Assembly: GCA_964443135.1 (NCBI GenBank)
Contig: CAYUBQ010000017.1
Coordinates: 726-64,725, forward strand
Reading direction: 5' to 3'
DNA from: an uncultured Desulfobacterales bacterium
GTDB lineage: Bacteria > Desulfobacterota > DSM-4660 > Desulfatiglandales > HGW-15
Length of the DNA stretch: 64,000 bases
Position numbers and translations under genes: made by a program. Shown one piece after another: positions 2,886-62,615 of the stretch (the stretch's first letter is position 1; each line of letters begins with the position of its first letter). The notes below the pieces were generated by a model. It saw only the letters and a list, made by a program, of their open reading frames with translations. It had not been told where the DNA came from and made no database searches.

Positions 2886-4103
2886 ATGAGAAGAAGCATC
2901 CTCATCGCAGCTCTCGCCCTCTTCCTGGGGCTCACCTGGTCGGGCTGTGTGACGCCGGGCGGGGAACCGGCGGCATCCGTGTCGGCCGTGAGCTCCGAGG
3001 GAGGGATCGCCGGGGAGTTTCTCTCCCGGGCGCGCGACCTGGAGAACCGGGGATTTCCGGTGCGCGCCCTGCGCCGGTACCGGATCGCTCTTACCGTCGA
3101 CCCGGAGAACCCGGAGGCCCTCGAGGCGGCCGGCCGGCTGGAGTCCCGCCTGGACGCGCGGGCCGACGAGCACTGCCGGGTCGGCCTGGCGTTTCACAAG
3201 GAGGGAAAGTACGCGCAGGCCCGGCACGAGTTCCTCACGGCGCTCCGGCTCGACCCGGATCACCCGACAGCCGCCGGGATGCTCGTCTCGCGGGAGCGGG
3301 TGCGGAGCACGCGTTACATCGTTCATCGGGTGGTTCCCGGGGAAAGCCTGTCCGCCCTGGCACAGCGCTACTACGGGGACTACCGCATGTTTCCGGAGAT
3401 CGCACGGTACAACCAGTTGAGGGATGCGACCCGGTTGACGGTGGGGCAGGAGCTCCGGATCCCGGAGATCGAAGGGGCCCCGTTTCTCACGGGCGAGGTC
3501 CCGGTGGAGACCGAGGAGAAGGCCCCGCCCGAGTACGGTCTCTGGGAGTGGGGAGCGTACGAGGCCGCGGCCGGCCGTGAGGCGGACGAGGTCGCCGGGG
3601 AGGCGGAGGAATCGGCCCGCATCACGTCCTGCCTGGCGCACGGGATCGCCCTGTTCGATCGCAGGAAGTACCGGCAGGCCGTCGTGGAGCTCGAACGGGT
3701 CCTCCATGCGAGGCCGGGCGACGAGACCGCCCGGGACTATGCGTCCAAGGCCCACTTCCGGCTGGCCGAGGATCTGTTCGAGAAACAACAGTTCCTCGCT
3801 GCACGCGAAGGATTCATGGAAGCGCTGCGCATCCGGGGGGACTGTGCCGAGTGCCACCGGTATGCCGAGAAGAGCGAGGATCTCTACAAGGAGTCCCACT
3901 ACCGCAGGGGCATGCAGTACTACAACCAGGAAAGGCTCAGAGAGGCCATGGGGGAGTGGGAGCGTGTCCGGGCCCTCGACCCGGGCTACAAGCGGGTGGA
4001 TTACCTCATTGAAAGGTCGAGGAAAATCCTTTCGAACCTCGAGGCCTTGAAAAGACACCAGGGAAAAAGCCCTGAGGAGGACGGCGGAAGCCGTCCCGAT
4101 TGA
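2886..4103 (+). CDS. TPR-repeat / LysM-domain lipoprotein
   Basis: Signal peptide plus lipobox LTWSGC. LysM-like YIVHRVVPGESLSALAQRYYGDYRMFPEIARYNQLRDATRLTVGQELRIP. TPR-like helical repeats. The stop codon TGA (4101-4103) lies inside repeat copy A. Confidence 0.8.
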   Translation: MRRSILIAALALFLGLTWSGCVTPGGEPAASVSAVSSEGGIAGEFLSRARDLENRGFPVRALRRYRIALTVDPENPEALEAAGRLESRLDARADEHCRVGLAFHKEGKYAQARHEFLTALRLDPDHPTAAGMLVSRERVRSTRYIVHRVVPGESLSALAQRYYGDYRMFPEIARYNQLRDATRLTVGQELRIPEIEGAPFLTGEVPVETEEKAPPEYGLWEWGAYEAAAGREADEVAGEAEESARITSCLAHGIALFDRRKYRQAVVELERVLHARPGDETARDYASKAHFRLAEDLFEKQQFLAAREGFMEALRIRGDCAECHRYAEKSEDLYKESHYRRGMQYYNQERLREAMGEWERVRALDPGYKRVDYLIERSRKILSNLEALKRHQGKSPEEDGGSRPD

Positions 4104-4201
4104 CGCATTCGCAGAAACCGCTCACGCGCCGCTGGAAGCGCTGGTACCCGTTGAAAACCCACGGGCAGATCTCGAGGCTTCGGGTTTTTTGCGACGTCAT
4201 C
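4098..4201 (+). repeat. Structured interspersed element, copy A (full length)
   Basis: GATTGACGCATTCGCAGAAACCGCTCACGCGCCGCTGG..GGGCAGATCTCGAGGCTTCGGGTTTTTTGCGACGTCATC. Imperfect terminal inverted repeat. Flanked by CCCGAT at 4095-4100 and 4201-4206. Confidence 0.85.
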
Positions 4202-4206
4202 CCGAT

Positions 4207-4887
4207 TCAGCGGCCTCGCAGCAGGACGTACACCGCCCCCGCTCCCCCGTCGTAGGGTCGGGCGGTGGCGAAGGCCAGGACGATCTTGCGCACGGAGCCG
4301 CTGCTGAACCAGACGGGAAGCTGCTCCTTCAGCACCGGAAAGCTCGAAGGCGAGTTCAGCCCCCGACCGTGGATGACGAGCACGCATCGCAGGCCGAGCC
4401 GGTGGCTTTCCCGAAGGAACTCCCGCACCCGGAGCCGGGCCTCGCTCTTCGTGAGCCCGTGAAGATCCACGTGGTCCTGGATCGGAAACCTCCCCTGCTT
4501 CAAGCGCCTCATCACCTTTCTTCCGACGCCCTTCACCGAGCCCTCCATGTACTCGTCCGTGAAGCTGATGTCCATCTCCACGGACCCGTGGACCAGCCGG
4601 CTGAGGTGCTCCAGGACCTCGCGGTCCTCGTCCGGGGCCGGGTGCGCCGGCCGGGGCGAGGCGGACGGGGATCTCGGTTTCCTCTTCCGCCCTCCGCGGA
4701 GGGGTTTCACGTCGGCCACGGCCTCGAGGAACGTTCTCGTCTGCTCCGAGACCGGGTCCGATTCCGGCGTCGATTCCGGCGCATCTCCGGCCGGGGCCGG
4801 TGACGGTTCTTCCGGGGGCGGTTCGACCTTCAGGTCCCGTCCCTCGAGCACGGGATTGAACACGTTCCTGCCTCTGGACTTTTTCAT
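4207..4887 (-). CDS. Smr (MutS2 C-terminal-like) domain protein
   Basis: C-terminal Smr signature VDLHGLTKSEA..CVLVIHGRGLNS. Start chosen at MKKSRGRN (4887); the longer ORF to 5028 would overlap the divergent gene's start. Confidence 0.75.
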   Translation of the reverse strand: MKKSRGRNVFNPVLEGRDLKVEPPPEEPSPAPAGDAPESTPESDPVSEQTRTFLEAVADVKPLRGGRKRKPRSPSASPRPAHPAPDEDREVLEHLSRLVHGSVEMDISFTDEYMEGSVKGVGRKVMRRLKQGRFPIQDHVDLHGLTKSEARLRVREFLRESHRLGLRCVLVIHGRGLNSPSSFPVLKEQLPVWFSSGSVRKIVLAFATARPYDGGAGAVYVLLRGR

Positions 4888-5026
4888 GAGCTCCCCCGGC
4901 CGGCGGTTCGGGTCCGATTGCACGGCCGGTGTCCGCCTTCCCTTGATTCGACCCTGTATTTCCATTATAACAGTCCCATTTCCGTGTGTGAACCCGGAGA
5001 ACCCCCAACAGAAGCGAGGAATCATC

Positions 5027-5674: not shown

Positions 5675-5732
5675 ACGGGGCCGGCCCCGGTCCGGCCCGC
5701 GGCCCGAACCCCCGAACGACGAGGAGACGAAC

Positions 5733-6929: not shown

Positions 6930-7193
6930 GCGTCACCTCCGTCAATCAGAGCCCCCTCCACTCCCTGAACGGCTCTTCGAGCAGGCCGAAGCGCAGCATG
7001 CCCTGAAATCCGGGAATCTGATCGGAGAGGCCCGCATCAGGTTTGCGACAAGCGCGGCGGGGTGCAAAACCCCGCCCTGCGAAAACACCGGTTTTCATCA
7101 GCGGGGGGGTGACCGGACGCCGGTCATGGACGTTTGGAGATTGATTCCTGTGGTGAAAAGAGGTAATGAGGGCTTGGTTCGGAAAACAGAGGA

Positions 7194-7297
7194 GATGGAG
7201 TCGAAAAAGCCACAAGCCTCGAGATCTGCCCCGGAACCGTCCGAGGGCGACACCGTTTCCAGCGGCGGGTGAGCGGGTCTTTGCGAATCCGTCAGAG
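7194..7297 (-). repeat. Structured interspersed element, copy B (full length)
   Basis: Minus-strand reading CTCTGACGGATTCGCAAAGACCCGCTCACCCGCCGCTGGAAACGG..GGGGCAGATCTCGAGGCTTGTGGCTTTTTCGACTCCATC. Flanked by GAGGAG at 7189-7194 and 7295-7300. Confidence 0.85.
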
Positions 7298-7311
7298 GAG
7301 GGATGCGCGTG

Positions 7312-7709: not shown

Positions 7710-7883
7710 TTACTTCTTCTGCCCCTGGCGCACCCACTCCCGCAAGGCTTCCCGCTCGAAACGCCACTTGTTCAGGACCATCTTCGCCGGGATTTTTCCG
7801 GCCTTGGCCAGCTTGTACACGGACCGCTTCCCCAGACGCAGAAACTCTGCGGCCTCTTCAATGGTCAAAATGTCCTTTTCCAT
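7710..7883 (-). CDS. Excisionase/AlpA-type helix-turn-helix DNA-binding protein
   Basis: MEKDILTIEEAAEFLRLGKRSVYKLAKAGKIPAKMVLNKWRFEREALREWV. AGGAG RBS upstream of the ATG at 7883. Confidence 0.75.
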   Translation of the reverse strand: MEKDILTIEEAAEFLRLGKRSVYKLAKAGKIPAKMVLNKWRFEREALREWVRQGQKK

Positions 7884-7954
7884 CTCTTTTCTCCTTTGTA
7901 ACGGATAAGTTTGATGTCCAAACATCTACAAATATCGTGCCAAAAAAGGCGAAT

Positions 7955-8235
7955 GCAGAATCTCTCCGGCCTTGGCCAGCTTGTGCCCATCCATATACGA
8001 ACGTCGGGCATGGTTGCGTTTCCAATTCAGAAAGGAGGAATTTTTGTCAAGATCAAGGAGATCGAGAGGTGACGCGGAGGCGTACTGGAGTACGCCGCAC
8101 AAGGAACCTCGCCGATCGACGATGGGATTGGCAAAAAAGACCCTTTCTGGATGGAAACCAGCTTGTACACGGATCGCTGTCCCAGCTGAGGAGCTCCGCG
8201 GCCTCCTCGATGGTCAGGATCTCCTTGTCTGCCAT
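7955..8235 (-). pseudogene. Degraded tandem copy of the HTH gene
   Basis: The 5' part (8235-8158) reads MADKEILTIEEAAELLS and then loses 1 nt relative to the intact copy. It is interrupted by 173 bp. Only ~30 nt (7984-7955) of the downstream part remain. Confidence 0.6.
7985..8157. mobile_element. 173-bp insertion inside the HTH pseudogene, flanked by a 9-bp direct repeat
   Basis: CCAGCTTGT occurs at 7976-7984 and 8158-8166, and the intact paralog has one copy at the equivalent site. Short inverted termini (CCATCCA). Internal hairpin GGCGTACTGGAGTACGCC. Confidence 0.4.
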
Positions 8236-8255
8236 GACGCGAACCCCCCAAACTT

Positions 8256-8360
8256 GACGGCGTCGCAAAAAGCCCGAATCCTCCAGATCTGCCCCTGGGA
8301 TCTCAACGGGTGATATCGTCCCCAGCGGCGGATGAGCGGGCTTTTGCGAACCCGTCGATC
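8256..8360 (-). repeat. Structured interspersed element, copy C (full length)
   Basis: Minus-strand reading GATCGACGGGTTCGCAAAAGCCCGCTCATCCGCCGCTGGGGACGATATCACCCGTTGAGATCCCAGGGGCAGATCTGGAGGATTCGGGCTTTTTGCGACGCCGTC. Confidence 0.85.
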
Positions 8361-8707
8361 ACCCGAACGAGAACGTCGGGTGTGAACGGCTTCTCGAGAT
8401 AGTCCGACACACCGGCCCACTCGGCCTCCTCCCGGAGCCCTTCGTTCCCGTATCCCGTGATCAGCACGGTGCTCAACTCCGGCAGAAGGGCCTTGGCCTC
8501 CCGAATCAGCTGCAGGCCGTCCATCCGGGGCATCCGGAAGTCGGAGATCAGAAGACGAACGGGGTCGTTTCGGGCCACCGATTCACGGATGATTTCCATG
8601 GCGCCGCCGCCGCTCCCGGCGGCCACGATCTGGAACCCGTAACTGTGGAGTCCGATTCTCAGGGCATTGAGGGTGCCCGGATCGTCGTCCACCAGGAGGA
8701 TCTTCAT
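8303..8707 (-). CDS. Single-domain response regulator (REC)
   Basis: MKILLVDDDPGTL..LLISDFRMPRMDG..LITGYG..YLEKPF. The last ~18 codons (IDGFAKARSSAAGDDITR) and the stop codon are encoded by repeat copy C. Confidence 0.85.
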   Translation of the reverse strand: MKILLVDDDPGTLNALRIGLHSYGFQIVAAGSGGGAMEIIRESVARNDPVRLLISDFRMPRMDGLQLIREAKALLPELSTVLITGYGNEGLREEAEWAGVSDYLEKPFTPDVLVRVIDGFAKARSSAAGDDITR

Positions 8708-9056
8708 GCCGGCCCGCCTCCGGGTCGAGGGTCTGGAACAGGCGCTCTCGCGGGCAACGGTCCGCTTCCGGCGGACCGCGGAACATGGGCCGAGGTCGAT
8801 CGGTAGATCGGCCCTCCCGCATAACAAACGGAACAGAGGAGCAAGGATCGTTCCACCCGGAAGGGTGAAAGGGAGAGAACGGTTCCGGGCTTCGAACGCC
8901 AGTGGGCTCGAAGGCTTACAGGGATGCATGAAAGGGTGCCTAGGGCAACAAAGAGTTCAGGCTTCGAGTCAAAATGGCGTACTCAAATGGCCATGTGAGG
9001 ATACAGGTCCTTCACAGCCCTGCGGATGGGCCGGCGCGCCATAATGGCGGCCTACG

Positions 9057-14514: not shown

Positions 14515-16149
14515 ATGCCTGACAGCCCCCGGGAAATCAAGGCCACCGTGGAGACCCTCCGGAAGCTGTTCATCATGCCGGACTCGCCGGACAAGTTCGT
14601 CGAGTTCGGGAACGAGCTCCTGGAGATGATCCACGACTTCTTCCGCGAGAAGGGGGGAATCCACAGCAGCGTCTCCCTGCCCGAGCTGAGCCGGATCTTC
14701 AGCCGGACCGCCGTTCCCGGCCACCCCATGCTCATCAAGGACGTCCTGGCGGAGATCAAGGACGAGGTCATCGCCCACTCCGTGAAGGTGGGGAACCCCT
14801 ACTACATCGGCCACATGATCAGTCCCGTGCCCTACTTCATGATCCTGCTCGAGATGATCATCGCCGCCCTCAACCAGAACCAGGTGAAGATCGAGACCGC
14901 CAAGGCCTCCAGCTTCGTGGAGCGGGAGCTCGTCACCTGGTTTCACCGGCTCGTGTTCGGCCGCACCGACCGCTTCTACGAGAAGAACGTGCAGAACCCC
15001 CGGGTGAGCCTGGGAAACGTGACCTCCGACGGGACCCTGGCCAACTTCACCGCCCTGGCCGTGGCCCGGGAAAAGGCCTTTCCGGCCGAGGGCGGCTTCG
15101 GCGGGGTCCGAAAGGAGGGCATGGCGCGGGCCCTCGCGCACCACCGGTGCCGCCGCGGCGTGATCCTGGTGTCGGCCCGCGGGCACTACTCCATCGCCAA
15201 GGCGGCCAACCTGCTGGGCCTGGGATCGGACAACGTGCTGAGCGTGCCCGTGGACCCGGACAACCGCATGGACCCGGCCAAGCTGAGACGCCGGGTGCGA
15301 TCCCTGGGAACGGACGAGCGGGTCGTCGCCGTCGTGGGGGTGGCCGGCACCACGGAGACCGGGAACATCGACGACCTGGAGGCGGTGGCGGAGATCGGGC
15401 GGGAGGCCGGAGCTCACGTGCACGTGGACGCCTGCTGGGGAGGAAGCGTGCTGCTCGTGGACGACTACCGGCCCCTCTTCCGGGGCGTCGAGCGGGCCGA
15501 CTCCGTGTCCATCGACGCCCACAAGCTCCTCTACTGCCCCATGGCCATGGGCATGGTCCTGTTCCGGAGCGAGCGGGACCTGAACCTCCTGAAGCACACC
15601 TCCAACTACATCATCCGCCGGAACTCCGTGGACACGGGGCGGTTCACGATCGAGGGCTCCCGCCCCTTCTCGGCGCTCAAGCCCTGGGCCTCCCTGAAGA
15701 TCCTCGGACGGCAGGGGTACCGGCTCCTGTTCGAGAGCGCCCGCAGGAACACGGAGACCCTCCGGGACCTCCTGGAGCGGGACGGAAACTTCGAGGTCAC
15801 CAACCGTCCGGAGCTCTTCATCCTGAACTACCGGTTCGTGCCCGGGACGGTGCAGGCGTTCCTGCCCGGGGCGGAGGCCGACACCCGGAAGGTCAACCGC
15901 CTGGTGAACGCCCTCAACGTCAAGCTCCACAAGGCGCTTCGAAGGGACGACACCACGTTCGTCTCCCGCACCACGCTGGAGTCCACGCGGTACCGGCCCC
16001 AGCGGATCGTGGTCCTGCGGGCCGTTCTCTCCAACCCCTTGACCGACCGGGGCGTGCTCGAGGAGATCGTCAGGACCCAGGCCCGGATCGGGCTCGAGAT
16101 CTGGCGGGAGTTCGAGCCCGCCTTCCGCAGAACTGTAATGGCGTCGTAA
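14515..16149 (+). CDS. Group II PLP-dependent decarboxylase
   Basis: 544 aa. PLP-lysine motif SIDAHKLLYCPMAMGMVLF and GNVTSDGTLANFTAL. The stop codon TAA (16147-16149) lies inside repeat copy D. Confidence 0.85.
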   Translation: MPDSPREIKATVETLRKLFIMPDSPDKFVEFGNELLEMIHDFFREKGGIHSSVSLPELSRIFSRTAVPGHPMLIKDVLAEIKDEVIAHSVKVGNPYYIGHMISPVPYFMILLEMIIAALNQNQVKIETAKASSFVERELVTWFHRLVFGRTDRFYEKNVQNPRVSLGNVTSDGTLANFTALAVAREKAFPAEGGFGGVRKEGMARALAHHRCRRGVILVSARGHYSIAKAANLLGLGSDNVLSVPVDPDNRMDPAKLRRRVRSLGTDERVVAVVGVAGTTETGNIDDLEAVAEIGREAGAHVHVDACWGGSVLLVDDYRPLFRGVERADSVSIDAHKLLYCPMAMGMVLFRSERDLNLLKHTSNYIIRRNSVDTGRFTIEGSRPFSALKPWASLKILGRQGYRLLFESARRNTETLRDLLERDGNFEVTNRPELFILNYRFVPGTVQAFLPGAEADTRKVNRLVNALNVKLHKALRRDDTTFVSRTTLESTRYRPQRIVVLRAVLSNPLTDRGVLEEIVRTQARIGLEIWREFEPAFRRTVMAS

Positions 16150-16240
16150 AAAGCCCCGAGCCTCGGGATCCGCCCCTGGGATTTCAACAGGTGATACCGC
16201 TGCCGGCGGCGCGTGAGCGGGTTCTGCGAATGCGTCAACC
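16137..16240 (-). repeat. Structured interspersed element, copy D (full length)
   Basis: Minus-strand reading GGTTGACGCATTCGCAGAACCCGCTCACGCGCCGCCGGCAGCGGTATCACCTGTTGAAATCCCAGGGGCGGATCCCGAGGCTCGGGGCTTTTTACGACGCCATT. Sits between convergent genes. Confidence 0.85.
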
Positions 16241-16251
16241 GCGGGGAGAGG

Positions 16252-17010
16252 TCAGCCGTCCCGGTCCCGCTTCTGGAGCTCCTCCAGCCGGCCGGTGTAC
16301 CAGTCGATCTGGCGGCAGACCCCCCGGATCACCCGCACCTCCCGGGCCCGGAGGGGCAGGCGGGAGAGGAACCGCCGGATGTTGAGCATCCAGTGCTCCG
16401 GGTTCTGGGGGTCCAGAAAGCCGATCTTCTGGAGGACGTCCCGGAGGTGGTCGTACATGCCCTCGAGCTCGAACCGGTCGGCAAGGCGGGGAACCGTCTT
16501 CGTGCCGGGCTCACGGCTCGCGAGGGAGATCTCGTAGCAGAAGACCAGGACCGCCTGGGCCAGGTTGAGCGAGGAAAACCCGGCCGACGGGATGGTGGCG
16601 ATGGTGTGGCAGTACCGCAGGTGCTCGTTGCTCAACCCCCGGTCCTCGGGGCCGAAGAGCAGGGCGACCCGGTTCTCCCGGGTGAGCGCGATCAGGTCGG
16701 ATGCGAGCTCCCGGGGGCTGGTGAGGGCGGGGCGGTTGGACCCGATGCGGGCGGTGGTCCCCACCACCCAGCCGTAGGGGCCGATGGCGGGCAGGAGCTC
16801 GTCGTGGACCTCCATCGCCTCCACCAGATCGATGGAGGGCCCGGTGGCCGTCTTGAGCACCCGGCTCAGGTCGCAGTTCCCGGGCCGGACCAGCGAGAGC
16901 CGCCGGATGCCCATGTTGGACATGGCGCGCGCCGCAGCCCCGATGTTCTCGGGGATCTGAGGCTCCACCAGGACGATGCCGATGTGATCGAGTAGGAGGT
17001 TGTCGGTCAT
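16252..17010 (-). CDS. trmJ: SpoU/TrmH-class tRNA 2'-O-methyltransferase
   Basis: IGIVLVEPQIPENIGAAARAMSNMG, LLFGPEDRGLSNE, IPSAGFSSLNLAQAV. Start at MTDNLLL (17010). Confidence 0.8.
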   Translation of the reverse strand: MTDNLLLDHIGIVLVEPQIPENIGAAARAMSNMGIRRLSLVRPGNCDLSRVLKTATGPSIDLVEAMEVHDELLPAIGPYGWVVGTTARIGSNRPALTSPRELASDLIALTRENRVALLFGPEDRGLSNEHLRYCHTIATIPSAGFSSLNLAQAVLVFCYEISLASREPGTKTVPRLADRFELEGMYDHLRDVLQKIGFLDPQNPEHWMLNIRRFLSRLPLRAREVRVIRGVCRQIDWYTGRLEELQKRDRDG

Positions 17011-17163
17011 CAACGAGCTCCTGAAGAGGGTTGTGCATCTCCGGTCACCTTCGCAGGCATCATAGGTCAAACGGGACGCCCCTTCAAGTCGTGTGCATGC
17101 CCCTCTTCTTCTCAACGCTTCCGGGATTCACCGTCGCTCTGGTCGTCCTGCCGCTCCCCGGGC

Positions 17164-17211
17164 GATTGCGCTGCCGGTGGCGCGTGAGCGGCTTCTTTCG
17201 AATGCCTCAAA
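17164..17211 (-). repeat. Structured interspersed element, 5'-arm fragment (copy H)
   Basis: Minus-strand reading TTTTGAGGCATTCGAAAGAAGCCGCTCACGCGCCACCGGCAGCGCAATC matches the first ~48 nt of copy D and then diverges. Confidence 0.6.
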
Positions 17212-17253: not shown

Positions 17254-18537
17254 GTGAATAGTGACAACTTGAAATACGTCCTTCGCCAGTTCGCCGAGCG
17301 AAGCCTCCCCCCATGCCGTCCCCGGACTCTGGTGCTGCCCGTTGATACGGGCAAGGTGATCGGCCTGGCCGGGGTTCGGCGTTCGGGGAAGACCTTTCTC
17401 TTTTTCGATACCATCCGGCGACTGGAAGAGCAGGGCGTGGACCGACGCTCTGTGGTGTACCTCAATTTCGAGGACGACAGACTGCACCCGCTTCGCTCCG
17501 AGGAGCTGGACCTGATCCTTCGTTGTCTCGAGGAGCTGTTTCCAGAGGTGATGGGCCGGCGTGTCTACCTGTTTCTCGACGAGGTGCAGAATGTGCCGGG
17601 CTGGGAGCGCTGGGTTCGGCGGATCCACGACACCGAGGATGCCGCCGTTTTTGTGACCGGTTCTTCTTCGAAGATGCTCTTTCGGGACTTGGCCACGGCA
17701 CTTCGGGGGCGGAGCATCACCTTCGAGGTGTTTCCCCTCAGCTTCCGCGAGTCCCTGGACTTTCGAGGCATCGAAACCGTGCCATACAGTGCGGAGAACG
17801 AAAGCCTGCTGCGCCGGGCCCTGGAGGAGTACCTCGCATGGGGAGGGTTTCCCGAGATCGTGCTGGCCGAGGAGACCCTGCGCCCGCACATCCTCACGGA
17901 ATATGCCTCTCTCATGTTCTACCGGGACGTGGTGGAGCGGTATGGAGTGCGCAATGAGCCACTCATGCGCGGGCTCCTCAGGCATGCCTTCCGCAACACC
18001 GCCACCCTGATCAATGTGAGCAAGCTCCACCGTGATTTTCGTTCTCAGGGGTTCAGCATCTCCAAAAACACGCTGTTCGAGTACCTCGGGTACCTGGAGG
18101 ATGCCTTTCTCGTTTTTCCCATTCCCCGGCTCGCACAGTCACTGCGCAAGCAGGCCCACAACCCGAAGAAGCTGCATGTCATCGACCCGGGCTTGGTGTC
18201 CGCATTCAAGGCGCGCACGGGGCCGGATTCCGGACGGCGGCTCGAAACGGCCGTGTTCCTGGAGATGCGCCGTGCTCACAAGGAGCTTTTCTATCATGCC
18301 GATGGAGGCGAGATTGACCTCTGCGACGGGGAAGGCACGGTGTTCGTCAATGTCTGCTGGAGCCTGGCCGAACTCGAGACCCGGCAGAGAGAGGCCAGGC
18401 AGATGGCCCTGGGACGAAGCCTGTGGCCCCAGGCCGATGGACGCCTGGTGTTTCACGAATATGCCCCCGAGCCCCCGGATCACGGCATCCCGGGCGCCCA
18501 GCCGGCATGGCGGTTCCTGACCACTGACCCCCTTTGA
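17254..18537 (+). CDS. COG1373-type AAA ATPase with DUF4143-like C-terminal domain (paralog 1)
   Basis: GTG start. Walker A GVRRSGKT, Walker B LFLDEVQ. In the C-terminal region the EID..VNVC segment aligns with the EVD..EIK of paralog 2. Confidence 0.8.
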   Translation: MNSDNLKYVLRQFAERSLPPCRPRTLVLPVDTGKVIGLAGVRRSGKTFLFFDTIRRLEEQGVDRRSVVYLNFEDDRLHPLRSEELDLILRCLEELFPEVMGRRVYLFLDEVQNVPGWERWVRRIHDTEDAAVFVTGSSSKMLFRDLATALRGRSITFEVFPLSFRESLDFRGIETVPYSAENESLLRRALEEYLAWGGFPEIVLAEETLRPHILTEYASLMFYRDVVERYGVRNEPLMRGLLRHAFRNTATLINVSKLHRDFRSQGFSISKNTLFEYLGYLEDAFLVFPIPRLAQSLRKQAHNPKKLHVIDPGLVSAFKARTGPDSGRRLETAVFLEMRRAHKELFYHADGGEIDLCDGEGTVFVNVCWSLAELETRQREARQMALGRSLWPQADGRLVFHEYAPEPPDHGIPGAQPAWRFLTTDPL

Positions 18538-25288: not shown

Positions 25289-25357
25289 TGTGCGGAAAAG
25301 CCGACTCCTTCTTGGTCCTCGCGAGGTTTTCACACCCAAGTCCTCCAGGAATTTTAT

Positions 25358-25624
25358 GTGACTGTCACGGGCAAGCTTGACGTGCCCCTGGATCCGAAAA
25401 CCGCCGAAGAGGTTGTTCGAAATTTGGCCGTTTTGCCGCTTGTACAAATCGACGCCGAAATCATTCTTGCAGCGATCGGCAGGGGTCGCCTCCTGCGGTT
25501 TTCCTTTTGGGACGCGCTCATTGTGGAAGCCGCAGTTGCCGGTGGCGCCGACCGGCTGCTTTCCGAGGATCTGCAGCACGGCCAAGTCATAGATGACCTC
25601 AAAGTTGAAAATCCTTTCATATGA
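25358..25624 (+). pseudogene. Orphan N-terminally truncated PIN-domain (VapC-like) fragment
   Basis: 88-aa GTG-start ORF carrying only distal PIN motifs (SFWDALIVEAA..LLSEDLQHGQ). No antitoxin gene nearby. Locally lower G+C. Confidence 0.5.
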
Positions 25625-25666
25625 AAATGGTTATCGACTGAGAGATGGGGGACGCCCTTCAAATTT

Positions 25667-25722
25667 GATGGAGTCGTAAATAGCCTGAATCCTGTGAGCG
25701 GGTTTTTGCGAATGCGTCAATG
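25667..25722 (-). repeat. Structured interspersed element, 56-nt internally deleted mini copy
   Basis: Minus-strand reading CATTGACGCATTCGCAAAAACCCGCTCAC|AGGATTCAGGCTATTTACGACTCCATC. Both arms are retained and the central ~48 nt are absent. Confidence 0.7.
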
Positions 25723-25829
25723 ATGGGGCCAAGACGGTCCTAGGGATCTACTCGAACAAGCTGCTGAGCCGCCTGTATTTGAAAAGCTTCATGGAGCTGC
25801 AGGCCAAGGGAGAGGATGTTTTTTTGGGC

Positions 25830-26015: not shown

Positions 26016-26041
26016 TCGTGCTGTAGATGTTCGACGACAAG

Positions 26042-26079
26042 ATCCGCTGCCAGGCTCCTCCCGGCAGCGGATTTTTTTT
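26042..26079 (+). terminator. Intrinsic terminator (attenuator) between leader and ilvB
   Basis: ATCCGCTGCC (26042-26051) pairs with GGCAGCGGAT (26063-26072); the run of 8 T (26072-26079) begins at the last stem base. Confidence 0.65.
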
Positions 26080-26190
26080 GCAAGGCTGCCGGCCGGCAGC
26101 CACACCGAGAGAACGCTTGCACCGGGCGACCCTTCATGGGGTGGGCCGGAACCGACCCGGAACGACCGGGTGGACGAAAGGGAGAGAAAC

Positions 26191-28712: not shown

Positions 28713-29762
28713 ATGATGGCGGAGATCGATTTTGGAGGCGTGAAGGAGAACGTGGTCACGGCCGACGAGGTTTCCCTGGACAAGGCCCGGGAACTGCTCG
28801 GGGACGAGACCGTGGCGGTGCTGGGATACGGCGTGCAGGGCCCGGGCCAGGCGTTGAACATGCGGGACAACGGCATCCGGGTGATCGTGGGCCAGCGGGA
28901 GGGGGGCGAGTCGTGGGAGAAGGCCGTCCGGGACGGGTTCGTTCCGGGCGAGACCCTGTTCCCCATCGAGGAGGCCGCCCGGCGGGGGACCATCCTCCAG
29001 TTTCTCGTGTCCGACGCCGGGCAGGTGGCCTCCTGGCCGGAGGTGAAGGCCGGGCTGGCCCCGGGCGATGCGCTCTACTTCAGCCACGGGTTCGCCATCA
29101 CCTACCGGGACCAGACCGGGGTGATCCCCCCGGACGACGTGGACGTGATCCTGGTGGCGCCCAAGGGGTCGGGCCGGACGGTGCGGACCAACTTTCTGGA
29201 CGGAAGCGGCATCAACGCCAGCTACGCGGTGTTTCAGGACGCCACGGGCCGCGCCGAGGAGCGCACCCTGGCCACGGGGATCGCCATCGGATCGGGATAC
29301 CTGTTTCCCACCACCTTCGAGAAGGAGGTGTTCAGCGACCTGGTGGGGGAGCGCGGGGTGCTCATGGGGGCCCTGGCCGGCGTGATGGAGGCCCAGTACG
29401 ACCTGCTCAGGAGAAATGGGCACAGCCCGAGCGAGGCGTTCAACGAGACCGTGGAGGAGCTCACCCAGAGCCTCATCCGCCTGGTGGCCGAGAACGGCAT
29501 GGACTGGATGTACGCCAACTGCAGCACCACGGCCCAGCGGGGGGCCCTGGACTGGCGGCACCGGTTCCGTGAGGCGGTGGCGCCGGTCTTCGAGGAGCTT
29601 TACGACAGCGTGGCCTCGGGCAAGGAGACCCGCATCGTGCTCGAGGCGAACAGCGCCCCGGACTACCGGCAGCGGCTTCGCAGGGAGCTGGACGAGATCC
29701 ACGACTCGGAGATGTGGCGGGCCGGCGCGGCCGTGCGAAAGCTCCGTCCCGAGAACCGTTGA
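28713..29762 (+). CDS. ilvC: Ketol-acid reductoisomerase
   Basis: ATG at 28713 after AAAGGAGAG. GYGVQGPGQALNMRDNG, SHGFAI, LVAPKGSG, FEKEVFSDLVGERGVLMG. Confidence 0.95.
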   Translation: MMAEIDFGGVKENVVTADEVSLDKARELLGDETVAVLGYGVQGPGQALNMRDNGIRVIVGQREGGESWEKAVRDGFVPGETLFPIEEAARRGTILQFLVSDAGQVASWPEVKAGLAPGDALYFSHGFAITYRDQTGVIPPDDVDVILVAPKGSGRTVRTNFLDGSGINASYAVFQDATGRAEERTLATGIAIGSGYLFPTTFEKEVFSDLVGERGVLMGALAGVMEAQYDLLRRNGHSPSEAFNETVEELTQSLIRLVAENGMDWMYANCSTTAQRGALDWRHRFREAVAPVFEELYDSVASGKETRIVLEANSAPDYRQRLRRELDEIHDSEMWRAGAAVRKLRPENR

Positions 29763-29787
29763 AGCCCTTGTCAGACCGGGATGTTCA

Positions 29788-29892
29788 AGTTGACGCATTC
29801 GAAAAAACCCGCTCACGCGCCGCTGGGGACGATACAATCTGTTGGAATCTCAGGGGCAGATCTCGAGGCTTGGGGCTTTTGGGGACGCTATC
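29788..29892 (+). repeat. Structured interspersed element, copy E (full length)
   Basis: AGTTGACGCATTCGAAAAAACCCGCTCACGCGCCGCTGGGGACGATACAATCTGTTGGAATCTCAGGGGCAGATCTCGAGGCTTGGGGCTTTTGGGGACGCTATC. Confidence 0.85.
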
Positions 29893-29955
29893 AAAATATG
29901 ATTTGACAAAATGACCTGGTCTGGTCAGACTAAATGGATCAAGGAGGGTTGTTTT

Positions 29956-30201
29956 ATGCAAATCACCAATATTTCAGAGGCAAAGGCCCAGTTGTCCGCA
30001 CTCGTTGAACGGGTTCGGGCCGGGGAGGATATCATCATCGGAAAGGCCGGCCGGCCTGTCGCCCGGCTCGTCAAATACGAAAACAGCCGTCAGGCACGGC
30101 GGCCTGGGGCGCTGAAGGGCAGGATAAGGCTTTCAGATGATTTTGACGAGCTGCCCGAAGATCTGGCAGAAGCGTTCGGCATGGAGATGGAGAAAGAGTG
30201 A
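29956..30201 (+). CDS. Phd/YefM-family antitoxin
   Basis: MQITNISEAKAQLSALVERVRAGEDIIIGKAGRPVARLV. AAGGAGGG RBS. 4-nt overlap with the toxin gene. Confidence 0.85.
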   Translation: MQITNISEAKAQLSALVERVRAGEDIIIGKAGRPVARLVKYENSRQARRPGALKGRIRLSDDFDELPEDLAEAFGMEMEKE

Positions 30202-30575
30202 ATCTCTTCATTGACACCCACGTGCTGTTATGGTGGCTTGATGACAGCCCGAAGCTCTCCGAAGCCGGGCGAACCGCCATTTCAGATCCAGGCAATCTGA
30301 TCGTCTTGAGTGCCGTCGTGGTTTGGGAGATCCGGATCAAGCAGGCCCTGGGGAAGCTGGAAATCCCTCCGAGTTTTTACCGGGTGGTACAAGAACAGGG
30401 ATTTGAACTGTTATCGATAACGGGGGATCACGCATACGCTGTGGGTGACCTTCCCATGCACCACCGGGACCCCTTTGACAGAATGATCATTGCCCAGGCC
30501 AAACTCGAAGGCCTTACGGTGGCGACCCGCGACACTGTCTTCAACCAATACGACATCCCGGTTCTCAGGGTCTGA
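30198..30575 (+). CDS. vapC: PIN-domain toxin
   Basis: LFIDTHVLLWW, LSAVVVWEIRIK, HRDPFDRMIIAQA. Confidence 0.85.
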   Translation: MNLFIDTHVLLWWLDDSPKLSEAGRTAISDPGNLIVLSAVVVWEIRIKQALGKLEIPPSFYRVVQEQGFELLSITGDHAYAVGDLPMHHRDPFDRMIIAQAKLEGLTVATRDTVFNQYDIPVLRV

Positions 30576-30576
30576 C

Positions 30577-30594
30577 AACCCGCTCACGCGCCGC
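30577..30594 (+). repeat. 18-nt fragment of the structured element (copy I)
   Basis: AACCCGCTCACGCGCCGC is identical to 29806-29823 of copy E. It starts 2 nt after the vapC stop codon. Confidence 0.5.
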
Positions 30595-30618
30595 CATCAG
30601 GCTCCGTCCCGAGAACCG

Positions 30619-33516: not shown

Positions 33517-33590
33517 ATCCGGCTCCTCGTTTCGATGGGGTTCGACCGCCCCGGCCTCGCCGGGGTCGGCTGCATACGGCCTTGAAACCT

Positions 33591-33695
33591 GATGGGGTCG
33601 CAAAACGCCCTTGGCCTCGAGATCTGCCCTCGGAATATCGATAGATGATACCGTTTCCAGCGGCGGGTGAGCGGGTTTTTGCGAATCCGCCAAAC
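33591..33695 (-). repeat. Structured interspersed element, copy F (full length)
   Basis: Minus-strand reading GTTTGGCGGATTCGCAAAAACCCGCTCACCCGCCGCTGGAAACGGTATCATCTATCGATATTCCGAGGGCAGATCTCGAGGCCAAGGGCGTTTTGCGACCCCATC. Flanks are AACCTG and AACCTA. Confidence 0.85.
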
Positions 33696-33853
33696 CTAGC
33701 GCAGATCCGGAACATGAATCAAGGGGGAAAAGAAAGTGTCATGGATCCAACCCGCGTCAAGGGCATGACGTGTGCCGGTGGGGCCGAAGGGTCTCGATTC
33801 GCCCGGCCGGGCGCCGGATCCGGCCGCACGGGTCTCCTTTTCCGCGAGGCTTC

Positions 33854-34473: not shown

Positions 34474-34565
34474 GATTTGACGGTTTCGCAGGAACCCGCC
34501 CACCCGCCCCCATGCCCGTCGAAACCCAGGCTCGACTTGTGGCCGGATCGCCGGAGATTCCCATC
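34474..34565 (+). repeat. Structured interspersed element, degenerate copy G
   Basis: GATTTGACGGTTTCGCAGGAACCCGCCCACCCGCC matches ~30 of 35 nt of the 5' arm. The later segments GTCGAAACCCAGG, CTCGACTTGTGGC and TCCCATC are recognisable. Confidence 0.5.
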
Positions 34566-34709
34566 ATGTGGGGCTTCTGACCGGGGCGACGGCCGCACTC
34601 CTTGCCCGCCGGGGGGGATCGGCCATGGGGGCGGACGAAAAGGGCATGAGAATTGCAGCAGCATCGCTCCACCTGATCCCGCTCGGCCGAACGGGCCGAG
34701 CGTAAACCG

Positions 34710-51590: not shown

Positions 51591-53852
51591 TCAGCCCTGG
51601 AGCAGGGTGAGCGCCGCCTGCGGCAGGGTGTTGGCCTGGGCCAGCATGGCGGTTCCGGCCTGCTGCAGGATCTGGGCCTTGGTCATGGATGCGACCTCCG
51701 CGGCGTAGTCCGCATCCAGGATGCGGGATCGCGCTGCAGAGATGTTCTCCGCGACGTTGCCCAGGTTGGCGATGGTGGACTCGAACCGGTTCTGGACCGC
51801 ACCCAGGTCGCCTCGAATGGAGTCGATCTGGCCGATCGCGCCGTCAATGACATCAATGGCATCGTTGGCGCCTTCCTGGCTGCTGATGTCGATCTGGTTC
51901 ACGCTGGAGAGCTCCGAAGCGTTCGCAGCGCCGGCATCCGCGTTGAACAGGGAGGAACCGGCGGAGGCGTCCCCATCCACGCTAGAGGTGATGTTGAAGG
52001 TGTCCTGGGAGTCGAACTTGACCTCGCCCCCCACCACCGTGGAGTCGGCACCGTTTCGGTCCCCGCCGTCGTAGAGCTTGACCGTGGTCGTGGCCGTGTC
52101 GTTGTCCGCGCCCACGTCCCCGCCGGTCACGCTGATGGAGACCTCGTTCTCGGGCACAATCGTGGATCCGTCACCAGATACTTTGTTTGTAGATGACACA
52201 TCGGTTTGATAATCGACTGCAGCGCTGTGCTGGAAGCCGGAGATCTTGATGTCTGCCCCTTCACTGTGCTCCAGCACGATCTCCGAGGTGCTGCTGCCGA
52301 TCTTGGCCGTGATGCCCGTGTTGCCGGAGAGATCGTTGATGGCGTCCACCAAGGCGCCCAAATCATTGCTCGTCACCGTGGCTTCCACCGACACCGCCTC
52401 GGCGTTGTCGCCCCGCAGGCCGAAACTGACCGTCCCGTCCTCACTCAGGCCGGAGAGGGTCACTTCGGTGGAGGCCGTGGCGCTGACGCCCGTGGAACCT
52501 TCCACTGCGTTCACCGCCTTAGCGATGCTTTCGGCTGAATCTCCCGCCGCGACCTCCACGGTTTCGGTGCCCATGGAGCCGACGATGGTCAAATCCTGCT
52601 TTTCCACGCCGTTGTTGGTTGCAGCGGTTTGTCCAACAACAGACGTGATGCTAGTATCACTTTCATTCTGAAAAATTGTATCGTTGGCATCATCAATAGT
52701 GTATCCTTCTTGTAGATACACTTCGACGCGTCCACCGAAAGTTAACTGGCTTTCATTACCATCATCCAAAAGTTCAGAGTCTCCTTTAAGTCCAGTAATT
52801 GTGAAGCCATCATCTTCAGTACCTGCTGTTGATACCTCAAAATACAGATCTCGTCCATCCAAAGCGTGTACATCAACAGTGCCACTATCATTCACAGTAG
52901 CATATATTCCTGCATCAGCTAGAGTGTCATTGTTATTGATATTTTCAGCAACCTTGCTCAATGTAAAATCAGAACCATCAGCGGTTTCATCAAAAACATT
53001 TTGTCCTTCAAGTTGAATTATAGTATCTGAAGTAGTATCATCAAGTTTAAGGTTGCTTAATGTGACTTTATTATAGGCAGTTGCTGACTCTACACCACTG
53101 GTGCCGGTCAGGGCGGTAGCGATATCTGATGCCTGATCGCTTCCATCGACAGCCACATCATTCGAATCAGTTACACCAGCCTTAGTAGTGCCGCTAATAG
53201 TCAATGTGGTTGCTGTATAACCGTTATCATCAGCTGCTGCAGAAACCTGTCCAACCTCGGTACCTTGATTTCCACTTCCAAGAAACGTCCGGCTAGTCGC
53301 CGCCTCGATGCCGTTGTCATTGTCCGTACGCACCGTGTTGGTCCCCAGGGCCGTGGACTGGGCATCGTCGATGGAAACGCCAATGGTCTCGTTCGCATTG
53401 GCGCCGACCTGGAACAGGGCGTTGCTCAGGCTGCCGTCCAGAATCTTCTGGCCGTTGAAGGTCGTGCTGGTGGCGATGCGCTGGATCTCCTGCTTGAGCA
53501 GATTGACCTCGGCCTGCAGGGAGGCCCGGTCGGAGGCGCTGTTCGTGTCGTTGGCCGACTGGACGGACAGCTCGCGCATGCGCTGGAGCAGGTTCGTGGT
53601 CTCCTGCAAAGCGCCTTCCGCGGTCTGGGCCATGGAGATGCCGTCGTTGGCGTTCCGCGATGCCTGGTTCAGGCCGCGGATCTGGGCGGTCATCCGGTCG
53701 GAGATGGCCAGGCCGGCCGCGTCGTCCTTGGCGCTGTTGACCCGCAGGCCCGATGAAAGCCTCTGAAGAGAGGTGTTCAGGGTCCCCTGGGACTTGGTAA
53801 GGTTTCTCTGGGCGTTCAGTGCCGCGATGTTCGTGTTGATTGAAATAGCCAT
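51591..53852 (-). CDS. fliC: Flagellin (753 aa) with large central variable region
   Basis: N-terminus [43 protein letters not shown]-terminus [34 protein letters not shown]. Confidence 0.95.
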
Positions 53853-57612: not shown

Positions 57613-57615
57613 GCG

Positions 57616-59671: not shown

Positions 59672-59769
59672 GGGTTCTTCCTCTTTTCCACCATTGCTTC
59701 GTTCGATTCTATCCTGTCGTCGCGAGTACCATAGCAAGCATCGACATCGAGGACCACAGCTGCCGCTGA

Positions 59770-60174: not shown

Positions 60175-60428
60175 CAGGCGGGCGCTCCATCCCTGTCGTA
60201 GCCCAGGATGGTATCAGCGGAGCGGGGGTCGATGTCGGGGAGGTTCCGGCAGCGCAAGGAAATGGCCATGATCTCGTCGACAGTGTTTTGAGGGGTTCGC
60301 CGGCCGCGTAGGCGCTCCAGCCTTTCCTCCAGGGCATGTATCACGGCCTGTGTCAGGTTCTCGCCGCTTTCCTCGGCCACCTCCCTTGCCAGCTTCTCGG
60401 CTCGTTCATTTCGAATGCTGAGCGCCAT
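60174..60428 (-). CDS. vapB: VapB-type antitoxin
   Basis: MALSIRNERAEKLAREVAEESGENLTQAVIHALEERLER. Its stop codon abuts the vapC start. Confidence 0.8.
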   Translation of the reverse strand: MALSIRNERAEKLAREVAEESGENLTQAVIHALEERLERLRGRRTPQNTVDEIMAISLRCRNLPDIDPRSADTILGYDRDGAPA

Positions 60429-60555
60429 GGTTTTTCTCCAGAAATGTATTGAATATATCAAAAAATATAGAATACAGAAAGCTGTCCGTCAAGGGGAAAA
60501 ACTTCAAGAGTTGCAGGATGGACTGGACCGCCGGCAACCGGGAAAGGTGTTGTCG

Positions 60556-60915
60556 CTATGGAAGCGTCCAGGAGAGTCCCATGACCCAGCCGACACTCTC
60601 CACGATCTCCCGGGTCCTCCGGGGGGAGAGGGTGCCGATTTTCTCGAGCAGGCGGTTCTTGTCGATGACCATGACATGGGTTCCCCTTGCCAGACTGGGC
60701 CTGGGGAGGTTCGCTTCCCCTTTCTCGAGCAGGACGTTTCCGGGAAGCGCGGCATGATGGGTGCTTTTCGTCAGAGGAACCACCAGGACCGTGCGAAAGC
60801 GGCTTCGGTTGATGGCATTCCTCTGCACGACCACCATGGGTCGATTGTAGGCCGGCTCTGAGCCGGTATTTGCAGCAAGGCTTCCACAGAAGACGTCCCC
60901 CTGCTGGATCACCAT
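60556..60915 (-). CDS. mazF: MazF/PemK-family endoribonuclease toxin
   Basis: MVIQQGDVF..NRPMVVVQRNAINRSRFRTVLVVPLT..LPGNVLL..VMVIDKNRL. Confidence 0.85.
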   Translation of the reverse strand: MVIQQGDVFCGSLAANTGSEPAYNRPMVVVQRNAINRSRFRTVLVVPLTKSTHHAALPGNVLLEKGEANLPRPSLARGTHVMVIDKNRLLEKIGTLSPRRTREIVESVGWVMGLSWTLP

Positions 60916-61163
60916 GACTCCTCCGGCTCGCCCGCGATGCCCAGCATCTCCTCGGCCAGGTCCTGGTCGTAGGCCGCGGTGCCTGGATCCGAACACACCT
61001 CATTGAATTGTCGGGTGATTTCCTCTTCCTCGAGCCTCTCGATCTGTTGCGCCACGGCCTGGACGACAAAGCGGCTCCTGGAGATGCCCTGCTTTTTGGC
61101 CCATGCATCCAGCTTCTCGAGGCATGGAGGGGGGATGGTGATCGCAATTCGCTGTGCTGACAT
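60909..61163 (-). CDS. Ribbon-helix-helix (CopG-like) antitoxin
   Basis: RIAITIPPPCLEKLDAWAKKQGISRSRFVVQAV. Overlaps mazF by 7 nt. Confidence 0.8.
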   Translation of the reverse strand: MSAQRIAITIPPPCLEKLDAWAKKQGISRSRFVVQAVAQQIERLEEEEITRQFNEVCSDPGTAAYDQDLAEEMLGIAGEPEESW

Positions 61164-61290
61164 GAGACGCTCCTATGTCCATGATCAGTATGATCAATCG
61201 TAATCGGGTAGAATCTCCAAGTCAAGCAGGGGATCCTGATCGCAGGTTGGGGTTGACATCGCTCCAATTTTACCGTACAAATTTGGAGTC

Positions 61291-62487
61291 ATGTTCTCGA
61301 GGCAGATCCAGCCTGTTGCGACGAAGAGCTTTTTCCTGTTCGGCCCTCGGCAGACCGGGAAGAGCACCTATGTTCGTTCGTTGTTGTCCTCCGAGGACCT
61401 GTACATCGATCTGTTGCCCCAGCGGAGCTACCTGGACTATGTCCGAAATCCCGGTAGCGTGCGGGAAGAGATTCTGGCCCATCTGGATCGGCATCCCGGG
61501 GCGATGTGTGTCATTGACGAGATCCAAAAGATCCCCGCGCTTTTGGACGAGGTACACGAGCTGATCGAGTCGCGGGGGGCCAGGTTCATTCTCACCGGGT
61601 CCAGCGCCAGGAAGCTTCGCAGGGGCGCTGCCAACCTTCTGGCGGGGAGGGCCTATACCTATCGCCTCTTTCCCCTGACCTTGCTGGAGCTGGGAGAGCG
61701 TTTCGATCTGGACCGGGCCCTCCGGGTCGGGACCCTTCCCGTGTTGTGGGGGGATGACCGCGAGGACCCTGCCGAGTTCCTGCGATCGTATGCCGAGACC
61801 TACCTGAAGGAAGAGGTGGCGGCCGAGGGCCTGGTACGGGATATCGGCCCTTTTGCGCAGTTCCTCGACATGGCTGCCGCCAATGACGGGGAGACCGTCA
61901 ACTTCAGCAACATGGCCCGAGAGTGCTCGGTGTCCAGCAAGACGGTGCAGCAGTACTATCAGATCCTTGAGGACACCTTTCTGGCCGTGAAGCTCTCGGC
62001 ATGGAGGCGCAGTGCCCGAAGGCGTCTCGTTTCCAACCCCCGGTACTACCTCTTTGACCCCGGCGTGACCAATGCCCTTGCCCACACCCTGACAGACCGG
62101 ATGGGGGGAAGCCTTCTCGGCCGGCGCTTCGAGCAGTTCGTCATCGGCCAGCTGACGGCCGCCATCCATTACCAGCGGCTGGACTACACCCTGCACTACT
62201 GGCGCACGAACCACGGCGCGGAGGTGGATGTCCTGCTCTGCGCCGGGAACCGCATCGTCTGCGCGCTCGAAATCAAGGCCTCCCGGCGAATCGCCTCGGA
62301 GTCCCTGACGGGGCTCAAGAGCTTTCTGGAGGACAACCCTGAGGTTGCCGCCTATGTTCTCGGGATCCAGCAGAAAAGGCGTAAGCTGGCCAACGGTGTC
62401 ACCGTGATGGACTGGAAGGACTTCATTGCGGAGCATTTGGAATCCGAGGGAGGTGGTCTTCAGACTCGGAGTTCACGAAGGACCTGA
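61291..62487 (+). CDS. COG1373-type AAA ATPase with DUF4143-like C-terminal domain (paralog 2)
   Basis: Walker A GPRQTGKS, Walker B CVIDEIQ. C-terminus HYWRTNHGAEVDVLL..ALEIKAS (D..ExK-like). Promoter TTGACA-N17-TACAAA at ~61254. Confidence 0.85.
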   Translation: MFSRQIQPVATKSFFLFGPRQTGKSTYVRSLLSSEDLYIDLLPQRSYLDYVRNPGSVREEILAHLDRHPGAMCVIDEIQKIPALLDEVHELIESRGARFILTGSSARKLRRGAANLLAGRAYTYRLFPLTLLELGERFDLDRALRVGTLPVLWGDDREDPAEFLRSYAETYLKEEVAAEGLVRDIGPFAQFLDMAAANDGETVNFSNMARECSVSSKTVQQYYQILEDTFLAVKLSAWRRSARRRLVSNPRYYLFDPGVTNALAHTLTDRMGGSLLGRRFEQFVIGQLTAAIHYQRLDYTLHYWRTNHGAEVDVLLCAGNRIVCALEIKASRRIASESLTGLKSFLEDNPEVAAYVLGIQQKRRKLANGVTVMDWKDFIAEHLESEGGGLQTRSSRRT

Positions 62488-62580
62488 TCAATGGACTCGA
62501 CGAATGCATCGACCTCATATTGGAGCTCTGGCATCTGATTGGCGAGGCGGGAGCAGGACGTTTCCGGGAAGCGCGGCATG

Positions 62581-62615
62581 CGGCGCATGAGCGGGTTTTT
62601 GCGAATGCGTCAATC
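62581..62615 (-). repeat. Structured interspersed element, 5'-arm fragment (copy J)
   Basis: Minus-strand reading GATTGACGCATTCGCAAAAACCCGCTCATGCGCCG, joined directly to a 30-nt mazF-derived segment. Confidence 0.65.

Follow-up and report, generated by a model that had tools for sequence, protein, structure and literature searches.

A short repeat that recurs in a 64-kb stretch of DNA from an uncultured Desulfobacterales bacterium is very probably a MITE (miniature inverted-repeat transposable element), of a previously undescribed family of a well-known kind. The whole stretch, hereafter the window, is chromosomal DNA of ~65% GC and carries housekeeping genes (ilvBHC, nadE, purE, nadA) as well as chemotaxis and flagellar genes (cheA/D/Y/Z, fliD, flagellin). 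The MITE family is restricted to a small clade of uncultured Desulfobacterota. Its copies have the properties by which MITEs are recognised: they are shorter than 500 bp and non-coding, bear terminal inverted repeats, are flanked by a target-site duplication (TSD) and occur at sites that are filled in one genome and empty in another. An earlier reading of the letters (the original prediction) had proposed an unrecognised kind of element. It overlooked the 6-7 bp TSDs and the insertion polymorphism, which are the marks of a textbook MITE. An asymmetric target used in one orientation, head-to-tail arrays and a few covarying pairs are mildly unusual features and do not make this a new kind of element.

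Anatomy, target-site duplications and mobility

The two-block pattern CGCTCAYNCGCCGC-N28-34-GCRGATCYNGAGG matches the window six times, at the six full copies and nowhere else, and has no match in 100 dinucleotide-preserving shuffles of the window. These six copies lie at the positions given in the original prediction and can be aligned over ~104 nt. Each of them scores E = 1e-27 to 1e-30 with an nhmmer profile built from those six, so that the six near full-length copies are real. Among 185,579 species genomes, the same pattern gave 27 loci, all in four metagenome-assembled genomes (MAGs) of uncultured Desulfobacterales/Deltaproteobacteria. Most of these loci come from GCA_964454455.1 (CAYVVQ). 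A left-end pattern scan of the Joint Genome Institute (JGI) metagenomes gave 46 loci, all in metagenome Ga0207797. The known range of the family is the one defined by these exact-pattern scans; the family end pattern is GACGSRTTCGCAAAAA ... TTTTTGCGAC(N)CCATC. The profile search proposed along with the original prediction recovered the family in the window and in relatives. Over all collected DNA, nhmmer found 100 full copies, 95 of which are non-redundant and have usable flanks.

Alignment of the copies together with their flanks shows that the element proper runs from GACG to CATC and measures 100-101 nt (consensus GACGCATTCGCAAAAACCCGCTCACGCGCCGCTGGGAACGCTATAACCTGTTGAAATCCCAGGGGCAGATCTCGAGGCTTCGGGCTTTTTGCGACTCCATC; 57% GC vs 65% for the genome). 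The initial four nucleotides included in the original prediction (GATT, CTTT, CATT etc.) differ between copies, yet recur right after ...CCATC. They belong to host DNA that is repeated directly over 6-7 nt, so the element proper starts at GACG. The 5' boundary had therefore been placed 4 nt too far out, within the TSD. The ends are imperfect 21-bp terminal inverted repeats, GACGCATTCGCAAAAA-CCCG against GATGGAGTCGCAAAAAGCCCG, which match at 17/21 positions with one 1-nt indel. Inverted termini had been correctly noticed, but the alignment needs just this indel and not the 3-nt bulge drawn earlier. Across 36 copies, 88.6% of the cells of the terminal stem are paired. The interior contains the conserved asymmetric blocks CCGCTCA, CGCCGC and GATCTC. 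The AGATCTCGAG core described previously is present, but only GATCTC is at least 90% conserved there, and CTCGAG reads CTCAAG in many copies. Read from the left end, the consensus has stops in all three forward frames, and no Pfam family was found in the open reading frames (ORFs) that overlap copies. The left junction, TT plus GACG, gives a -35-like TTGACG; a promoter reading was rejected, as the copies have no -10 at the right spacing.

A perfect TSD is found exactly at the GACG/CATC boundaries in 43/95 non-redundant copies (6 bp in 35, 7 bp in 8), vs ~1.4% in shuffled left/right pairings (1.3% for perfect 6-bp and 0.15% for perfect 7-bp duplications). For the first 37 copies, the TSD matching score is 3.65. 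Shuffled pairings give 0.97 +/- 0.21, and none of 1000 shuffles exceeds 2.03 (z ~12). The target logo is ANNWTT with S on either side (A 31/35, W 34/35, T 33/35, T 35/35, following S 34/35). Its TT always adjoins the GACG end. The outermost bases are symmetric, T being followed by GAYG at both junctions. The inner target bases are asymmetric and the target is therefore used in one orientation. Coupling between the target sequence and the internal variable positions is not significant (top mutual information (MI) 0.40 vs a 95% null of 0.46), and guide-like pairing of the target with the element interior was ruled out on this basis.

The arrays formed by some copies support such orientation-specific targeting. 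All 14 tandem junctions are head-to-tail and none is head-to-head. Their spacers are of the ANNWTT type and mostly 6-7 nt long, as in the dimer of locus L005, where ATGATT occurs three times; a trimer is found in L079. Re-insertion into the regenerated target accounts for the head-to-tail arrays.

Insertion polymorphism was observed at orthologous loci, where the original prediction had advised a presence/absence comparison. Syntenic contigs were reached via an IlvC search and a histidine-kinase search. L028, L029 and L030 show 86.6-92.6% nucleotide identity to the window. L031 and L032, from CAYVVQ and its microbial-mat twin, are mostly ~85-89% identical to it (80-92% across blocks), and L033 is 94% identical. 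Three window copies face clean empty sites with a single target sequence, in relatives at 86-89% nucleotide identity. The copy at 33591-33691 corresponds to a single cAACCT in L028/L029 (flanking AAACCT in the window), the copy at 4102-4201 to a single CCGGATT in the CAYVVQ contig L031/L032 (flanking CCGATT), and the copy at 7194-7293 to a single AAAGGA in L031 (flanking AGAGGA). Reciprocally, L031 has a copy of its own ~100 bp off in the 7194 spacer, at a point where only one ACGTTT is present in the window. L033 shares the copy at 8256-8356, which L031 lacks, and two MAG species (L003/L011) share one orthologous insertion. Among the six window copies identity is only 72-80%, and each of them has a closer family member (84-90%) in some other genome. 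Together with presence/absence, this pattern indicates that the family is old, comprises several subfamilies and was active after the lineages split. Within CAYVVQ and within Ga0207797, some copies are 98-99% identical, suggesting recent activity there.

Internal pairing, mechanism and alternative explanations

Three pairs of positions covary inside the element. Positions 5/26 are C-G in 56 copies and G-C in 37, with 2 exceptions; their MI of 0.97 bit is far above that of the other variable-column pairs. Because the collecting patterns allowed any S at 5 and 26, this covariation is no ascertainment artefact. Together with 6/25, this pair closes a small hairpin (3-7 with 24-28). The inner-stem pair 36/58 is G-C in 38 copies, A-T in 18, T-G in 8 and C-G in 6. 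The compensatory change claimed for the inner stem is borne out by the G-C, A-T and T-G combinations at this one pair. The mirrored right-end pair 78/96 is C-G in 23 copies and A-T in 21, plus wobbles, and also shows 19 mismatches. The terminal stem has no compensatory change, as expected of inverted repeats. Folding energies are mostly no better than those of shuffles (z from +0.7 to -1.1 in 6/8 folds). The "structured" character of the original prediction is thus weakly supported: a few pairs covary, but folding is mostly like that of shuffles and orientation to genes shows no bias (12 vs 10, see below).

In the MITE interpretation, copies would be mobilised in trans by a transposase encoded elsewhere. 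This enzyme would make cuts staggered by 6-7 bp and would treat the two non-identical ends differently. Restriction to intergenic DNA may reflect purifying selection against disruptive insertions. The compensatory changes of the internal stems may be a requirement of the transposition machinery or a side effect at the RNA level. Several observations weigh against this interpretation. The almost perfect covariation at 5/26 and the several pair types at 36/58 and 78/96 are not required by a pure "junk transposon". An intact duplication is missing from about half of the copies, and fixed orientation on an asymmetric target is atypical of simple transposons with symmetric terminal inverted repeats. 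Per-column conservation is inflated, notably in the left arm, since the copies were gathered via sequence patterns. No autonomous insertion sequence (IS) with the termini of the element was found in the window and 79 loci (~720 kb), where a regular expression for either terminus (<=3-4 mismatches in 20 nt) returned only remnants. Likewise, the window ORFs that were scanned contained no transposase or integrase domain. IS copies usually drop out of MAG assemblies. A 2.8 kb segment specific to L011 was considered as an IS and turned out to be a sensor-phosphatase gene.

There is a small chance that more is involved: either a transposase of a barely characterised or uncharacterised type, or folded copies co-opted as RNA hairpins that shape mRNA 3' ends. 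Such a transposase would distinguish the two ends, depend on mirrored hairpins at them and read ANNWTT between its two S bases in a single orientation. The complementarity at 5/26, 36/58 and 78/96 and the exclusively head-to-tail arrays would then be accounted for. The same pairs could instead belong to a structured RNA (a small RNA gene, a stabiliser of 3' untranslated regions or a bidirectional terminator) that is maintained for the host, in which case its being a repeat would be secondary. We consider this very unlikely. The three sets of compensatory changes and the conserved asymmetric blocks would fit an RNA, and so would CTCGA(GGCT)TCGGG, a weak terminator-like hairpin that precedes a T-run close to the right end. 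Many copies lie directly 3' of stop codons, and one stands in place of the normal terminator hairpin after ilvC. However, Rfam gives no match even at E = 5, folding hardly exceeds that of shuffles in the six folds mentioned above, copies take either orientation to the upstream gene and 18 of them lie in divergent promoter spacers. Moreover, the TSDs and empty sites show transposition as the mode of spread, and the 5/26 covariation may be a single event dividing two deep subfamilies.

Mirrored hairpins can be drawn at both ends (3-7/24-28 and 76-78/96-98), each with covariation, and the left end always adjoins WTT with orientation-specific insertion. This recalls IS200/IS605 (PATE) or REP/RAYT elements, which move as single strands through a hairpin-dependent HUH transposase and insert beside a short specific sequence. 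Members of the IS200/IS605 family are not known to make a target-site duplication, whereas a real 6-7 bp duplication is found here, with a single hexamer at empty sites. The target is not linked to internal variable positions, as guide-like pairing would have it, and the window ORFs scanned include no Y1/HUH gene. These points make a relationship of this type highly improbable. REP/BIME units were rejected separately, being 20-40 nt long vs 101 nt for the element, which has no match in E. coli genomes that bear them. More improbable still is an integron attC-like site, or another site-specific recombination site, that would mark gene cassettes. The element does form an imperfect palindrome of ~100 nt, and copies are found beside toxin-antitoxin and other accessory cassettes (window 29.8-30.6 kb; an MNT/HEPN pair in L033 where the window has a copy; DUF433/PIN genes at 2.8-7.2 kb of L028, with three copies among them). 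But copies, instead of forming one array, are scattered in both orientations among housekeeping genes, and the three clean insertions consist of the element alone. In addition, the duplicated hexamers vary, unlike a fixed crossover core, the termini GACG...CATC lack RYYYAAC/GTTRRRY boxes, and no integrase turned up in the window ORFs scanned. The remark that copies abut accessory cassettes, made in the original prediction, is accurate as a description; the clean insertions argue against the element being part of the cassettes.

Relation to known elements and consequences

The earlier statement that the repeat matches no known RNA family, REP/BIME or ERIC element agrees with our searches. Rfam gave 0 matches at gathering thresholds and nothing at the copies up to E = 5. 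No match was obtained with blastn against PLSDB plasmids, INPHARED phages or 5,426 complete E. coli genomes (which carry ERIC, REP and BIME), and two pattern scans of viral contigs gave 0 matches. Our literature search found no paper connecting MITEs and Desulfobacterales. A sub-threshold Rfam match to the alphaproteobacterial family ar14 lies at 26026-26108(+), upstream of an acetolactate synthase gene (23.9 vs 58.8 bits gathering, E = 2.4), and is most likely due to chance.

Prokaryotic MITEs are small, non-coding and mostly intergenic, with terminal inverted repeats and with direct repeats that flank the younger copies; they form many dispersed copies, size variants and truncated copies, and contain hairpin-forming sequence (PMC10969869). 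The general features of Chunjie of Geobacter uraniireducens, Correia/NEMIS of Neisseria and ERIC of enterobacteria are common to the present family, which, as a further likeness to MITEs, is AT-richer than its host genome. Chunjie is 178-235 bp long (PMC10969869) vs 100-101 bp here. The present family differs from these MITEs by its 6-7 bp duplication at an asymmetric ANNWTT target, its fixed orientation and its head-to-tail arrays, and no partner IS is known for it. Correia elements duplicate TA and are set apart by this duplication length.

Among IS groups, ISDol1, which was first described from Desulfococcus oleovorans and has its type host in Desulfobacterales, is a candidate parent: direct repeats of 6-7 bp are listed for it in ISfinder. 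The ~720 kb contained neither an ISDol1-like transposase nor an element of IS size with the present ends, and the papers mentioning ISDol1 give no end sequences. The group is a subfamily of ISNCY (PMC8147514).

Rickettsia palindromic elements and the pneumococcal BOX, RUP and SPRITE repeats are MITE-like palindromes that can cluster or lie in the 3' ends of genes, adding codons (PMC10969869). In a similar manner, copies of the present family give C-terminal codons to a response regulator and to a decarboxylase, and occur at 14 tandem junctions. Unlike these repeats, they show no systematic in-frame insertion into genes, with 2/95 inside gene calls, which are rough.

The family has practical consequences. 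ORF callers read into copies and create false C-termini, such as the "...DGFAKARSSAAGDDITR" tail, while in at least one gene, the response regulator at 8303-8929, the native C-terminus is truly replaced by the element. MAG assemblies are broken by the repeat, with several contigs terminating in a copy and gaps of 100 N next to copies. Presence/absence at 86-94% nucleotide identity provides a fine-scale population marker for this uncultured Desulfobacterota lineage. The asymmetric target and the head-to-tail arrays offer a handle for finding the transposase. Beyond these uses, the element is an ordinary selfish repeat.

Copies in the window and their surroundings

The coordinates of the window copies, with boundaries set at GACG and CATC, are given in Table 1. 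Of the fragments and degenerate copies claimed earlier, four are supported by profile matches. In the internally deleted copy (25667-25722(-) in the original prediction), both arms are matched, with E = 1.4e-4 and 0.37. The degenerate copy sits within a block that aligns contiguously to L028 and is therefore probably older than the split of the window and L028. The stretch at 30577-30594 is only plausible as a family member; it reads as GAC, AACCCGCTCACGCGCCGC and CATC, as a doubly deleted remnant could.

Table 1 Copies and fragments of the MITE in the window
Feature	Position	Strand	Remarks
Full MITE copy	4102..4201	+	TSD CCGATT at 4096-4101 and 4202-4207; spacer between TPR/LysM gene and Smr gene
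Full MITE copy	7194..7293	-	TSD AGAGGA (+ strand; TCCTCT in element orientation) at 7188-7193 and 7294-7299
Full MITE copy	8256..8356	-	In 3' end of response-regulator gene; without intact TSD
Full MITE copy	16137..16236	-	Spacer of convergent pyridoxal-phosphate (PLP) decarboxylase and SpoU methylase genes; TSD decayed (cGGTT / cAGTT)
Full MITE copy	29792..29892	+	30 nt 3' of ilvC; without TSD; within 840-nt insertion absent from relatives
Full MITE copy	33591..33691	-	Divergent DegT/CheD spacer; TSD AAACCT (+ strand; AGGTTT in element orientation) at 33585-33590 and 33692-33697
Internally deleted copy, 52 nt	25667..25718	-	Left 27 nt fused to right 25 nt
Old degenerate copy	34479..34566	+	Left 33 nt (34476-34508) E = 9e-4
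Left-arm fragment, 3'-truncated	17157..17208	-	Profile match 17157-17211, E = 1.4e-6
Left-arm fragment, 3'-truncated	62570..62611	-	Profile match 62570-62614, E = 2e-8
Probable 25-nt remnant, weakest member	30574..30598	+	GAC + AACCCGCTCACGCGCCGC + CATC; 30577-30594 alone E = 0.47, not significant

Decay takes the form of internal deletion, as at 25667-25718 and 30574-30598, of truncation and, as in L003, of the nested insertion of a further small element. Three copies truncated at ~85-87 were considered as ends of a shared longer element and rejected as such, their downstream sequences being unrelated. A lone 20-nt left terminus (GACGCATTCGCAAAAACCCG) at L032 13843-13870 is flanked by CTTT/TTTT, and the window has no insert there; it looks like the footprint left after most of a copy was lost.

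With gene calls made by a rough method based on GC at third codon positions (GC3), the 95 copies are distributed over tandem (37), divergent (18) and convergent (12) spacers, the inside of gene calls (2) and locus edges (26). Of those located <=60 nt from a stop codon, 12 have the same orientation as that gene and 10 the opposite one. Several ORFs terminate in the element, either at a TGA formed by a flanking T and GA or at internal stops. In the response-regulator gene 8303-8929(-), which encodes a receiver domain, the native C-terminus (~27 aa in the CAYVVQ orthologue) is swapped for 18 MITE-encoded residues (...IDGFAKARSSAAGDDITR). The same tail is found in L033 (94%), while the L031 gene keeps a longer native C-terminus. 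The copy at 16137..16236 provides the final 4 codons and the stop of the decarboxylase.

Accessory cassettes (vapBC-like, MNT/HEPN, AAA_14-DUF4143) occur in spacers also used by the element. At L033 1571-2525, a nucleotidyltransferase/HEPN (MNT-HEPN) toxin-antitoxin cassette is located exactly where the window (16129-16281) has a MITE, in the decarboxylase/SpoU spacer. In this lineage, MITEs and toxin-antitoxin cassettes seem to land in the same spacers. The ilvC-nadE spacer (29781-30620) holds 840 nt made of a MITE, a vapBC-like pair (PIN gene 30198-30575) and the 25-nt remnant. In relatives, this spacer is 77 nt long and contains an ordinary terminator hairpin. The ilvC 3' end is repeated directly over ~20 nt (29740-29762 vs 30599-30619), and this repeat bounds the 840-nt insertion. 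A composite transposon made of MITE, vapBC and remnant (29792-30598) was rejected, as the outer flanks form no duplication.

Two AAA_14 + DUF4143 ATPase genes, 17254-18537(+) and 61291-62487(+), each adjoin a truncated MITE left arm. The latter lies in a lower-GC stretch and the former has no counterpart in L033. These solitary left arms were considered as IS ends and rejected: there is no matching right end, and the side on which the gene lies differs between the two cases. A 4.4-kb variable segment of L028 (2793-7153), in which DUF433, PIN and small ORFs are interspersed with two copies of the MITE and a fragment, has as its window counterpart 513 nt (25304-25816) with just the 52-nt deleted MITE.

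An excisionase-family HTH_17 gene (7710-7925(-), 71 aa) and its degenerate, frame-broken tandem paralogue (8053-8268(-)) are located between two MITE copies of the same orientation. The second unit (7955-8255) is absent from CAYVVQ. Scaffold gaps of 100 N (L010, L014, L016, L020, L022, L026, L031) and contig ends are often at or beside MITE copies, for example at L020 2663, L031 13785, the end of L033 and the start of L031.

Two other small repeats were observed near MITE copies. Repeat X (~105-160 nt, 73-80% identical) is present at window 8000-8158(+), L024 296-451, L039 63-166 and L070 5530-5637. Its hairpin, GGCGTACT..AGTACGCC, shows compensatory stem changes between copies, and it has no Rfam match. 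In L039 and L070 the MITE interrupts X at one and the same point (after ...CGACGCAGAGATT), and in L024 a MITE lies just upstream of X. The MITE of L003 (1196-1429) contains an insertion of ~124 bp (1283-1406) with an 8-bp duplication, CTTAGGGC, on its flanks. The orthologous MITE of L011 lacks this insertion, a sequence related to it lies at L052 7778-7919 beside another MITE, and it is probably a second small mobile element of these genomes. Finally, the flagellin gene at 51591-53852(-), encoding 753 aa, lies in the only markedly lower-GC stretch of the window (55%).

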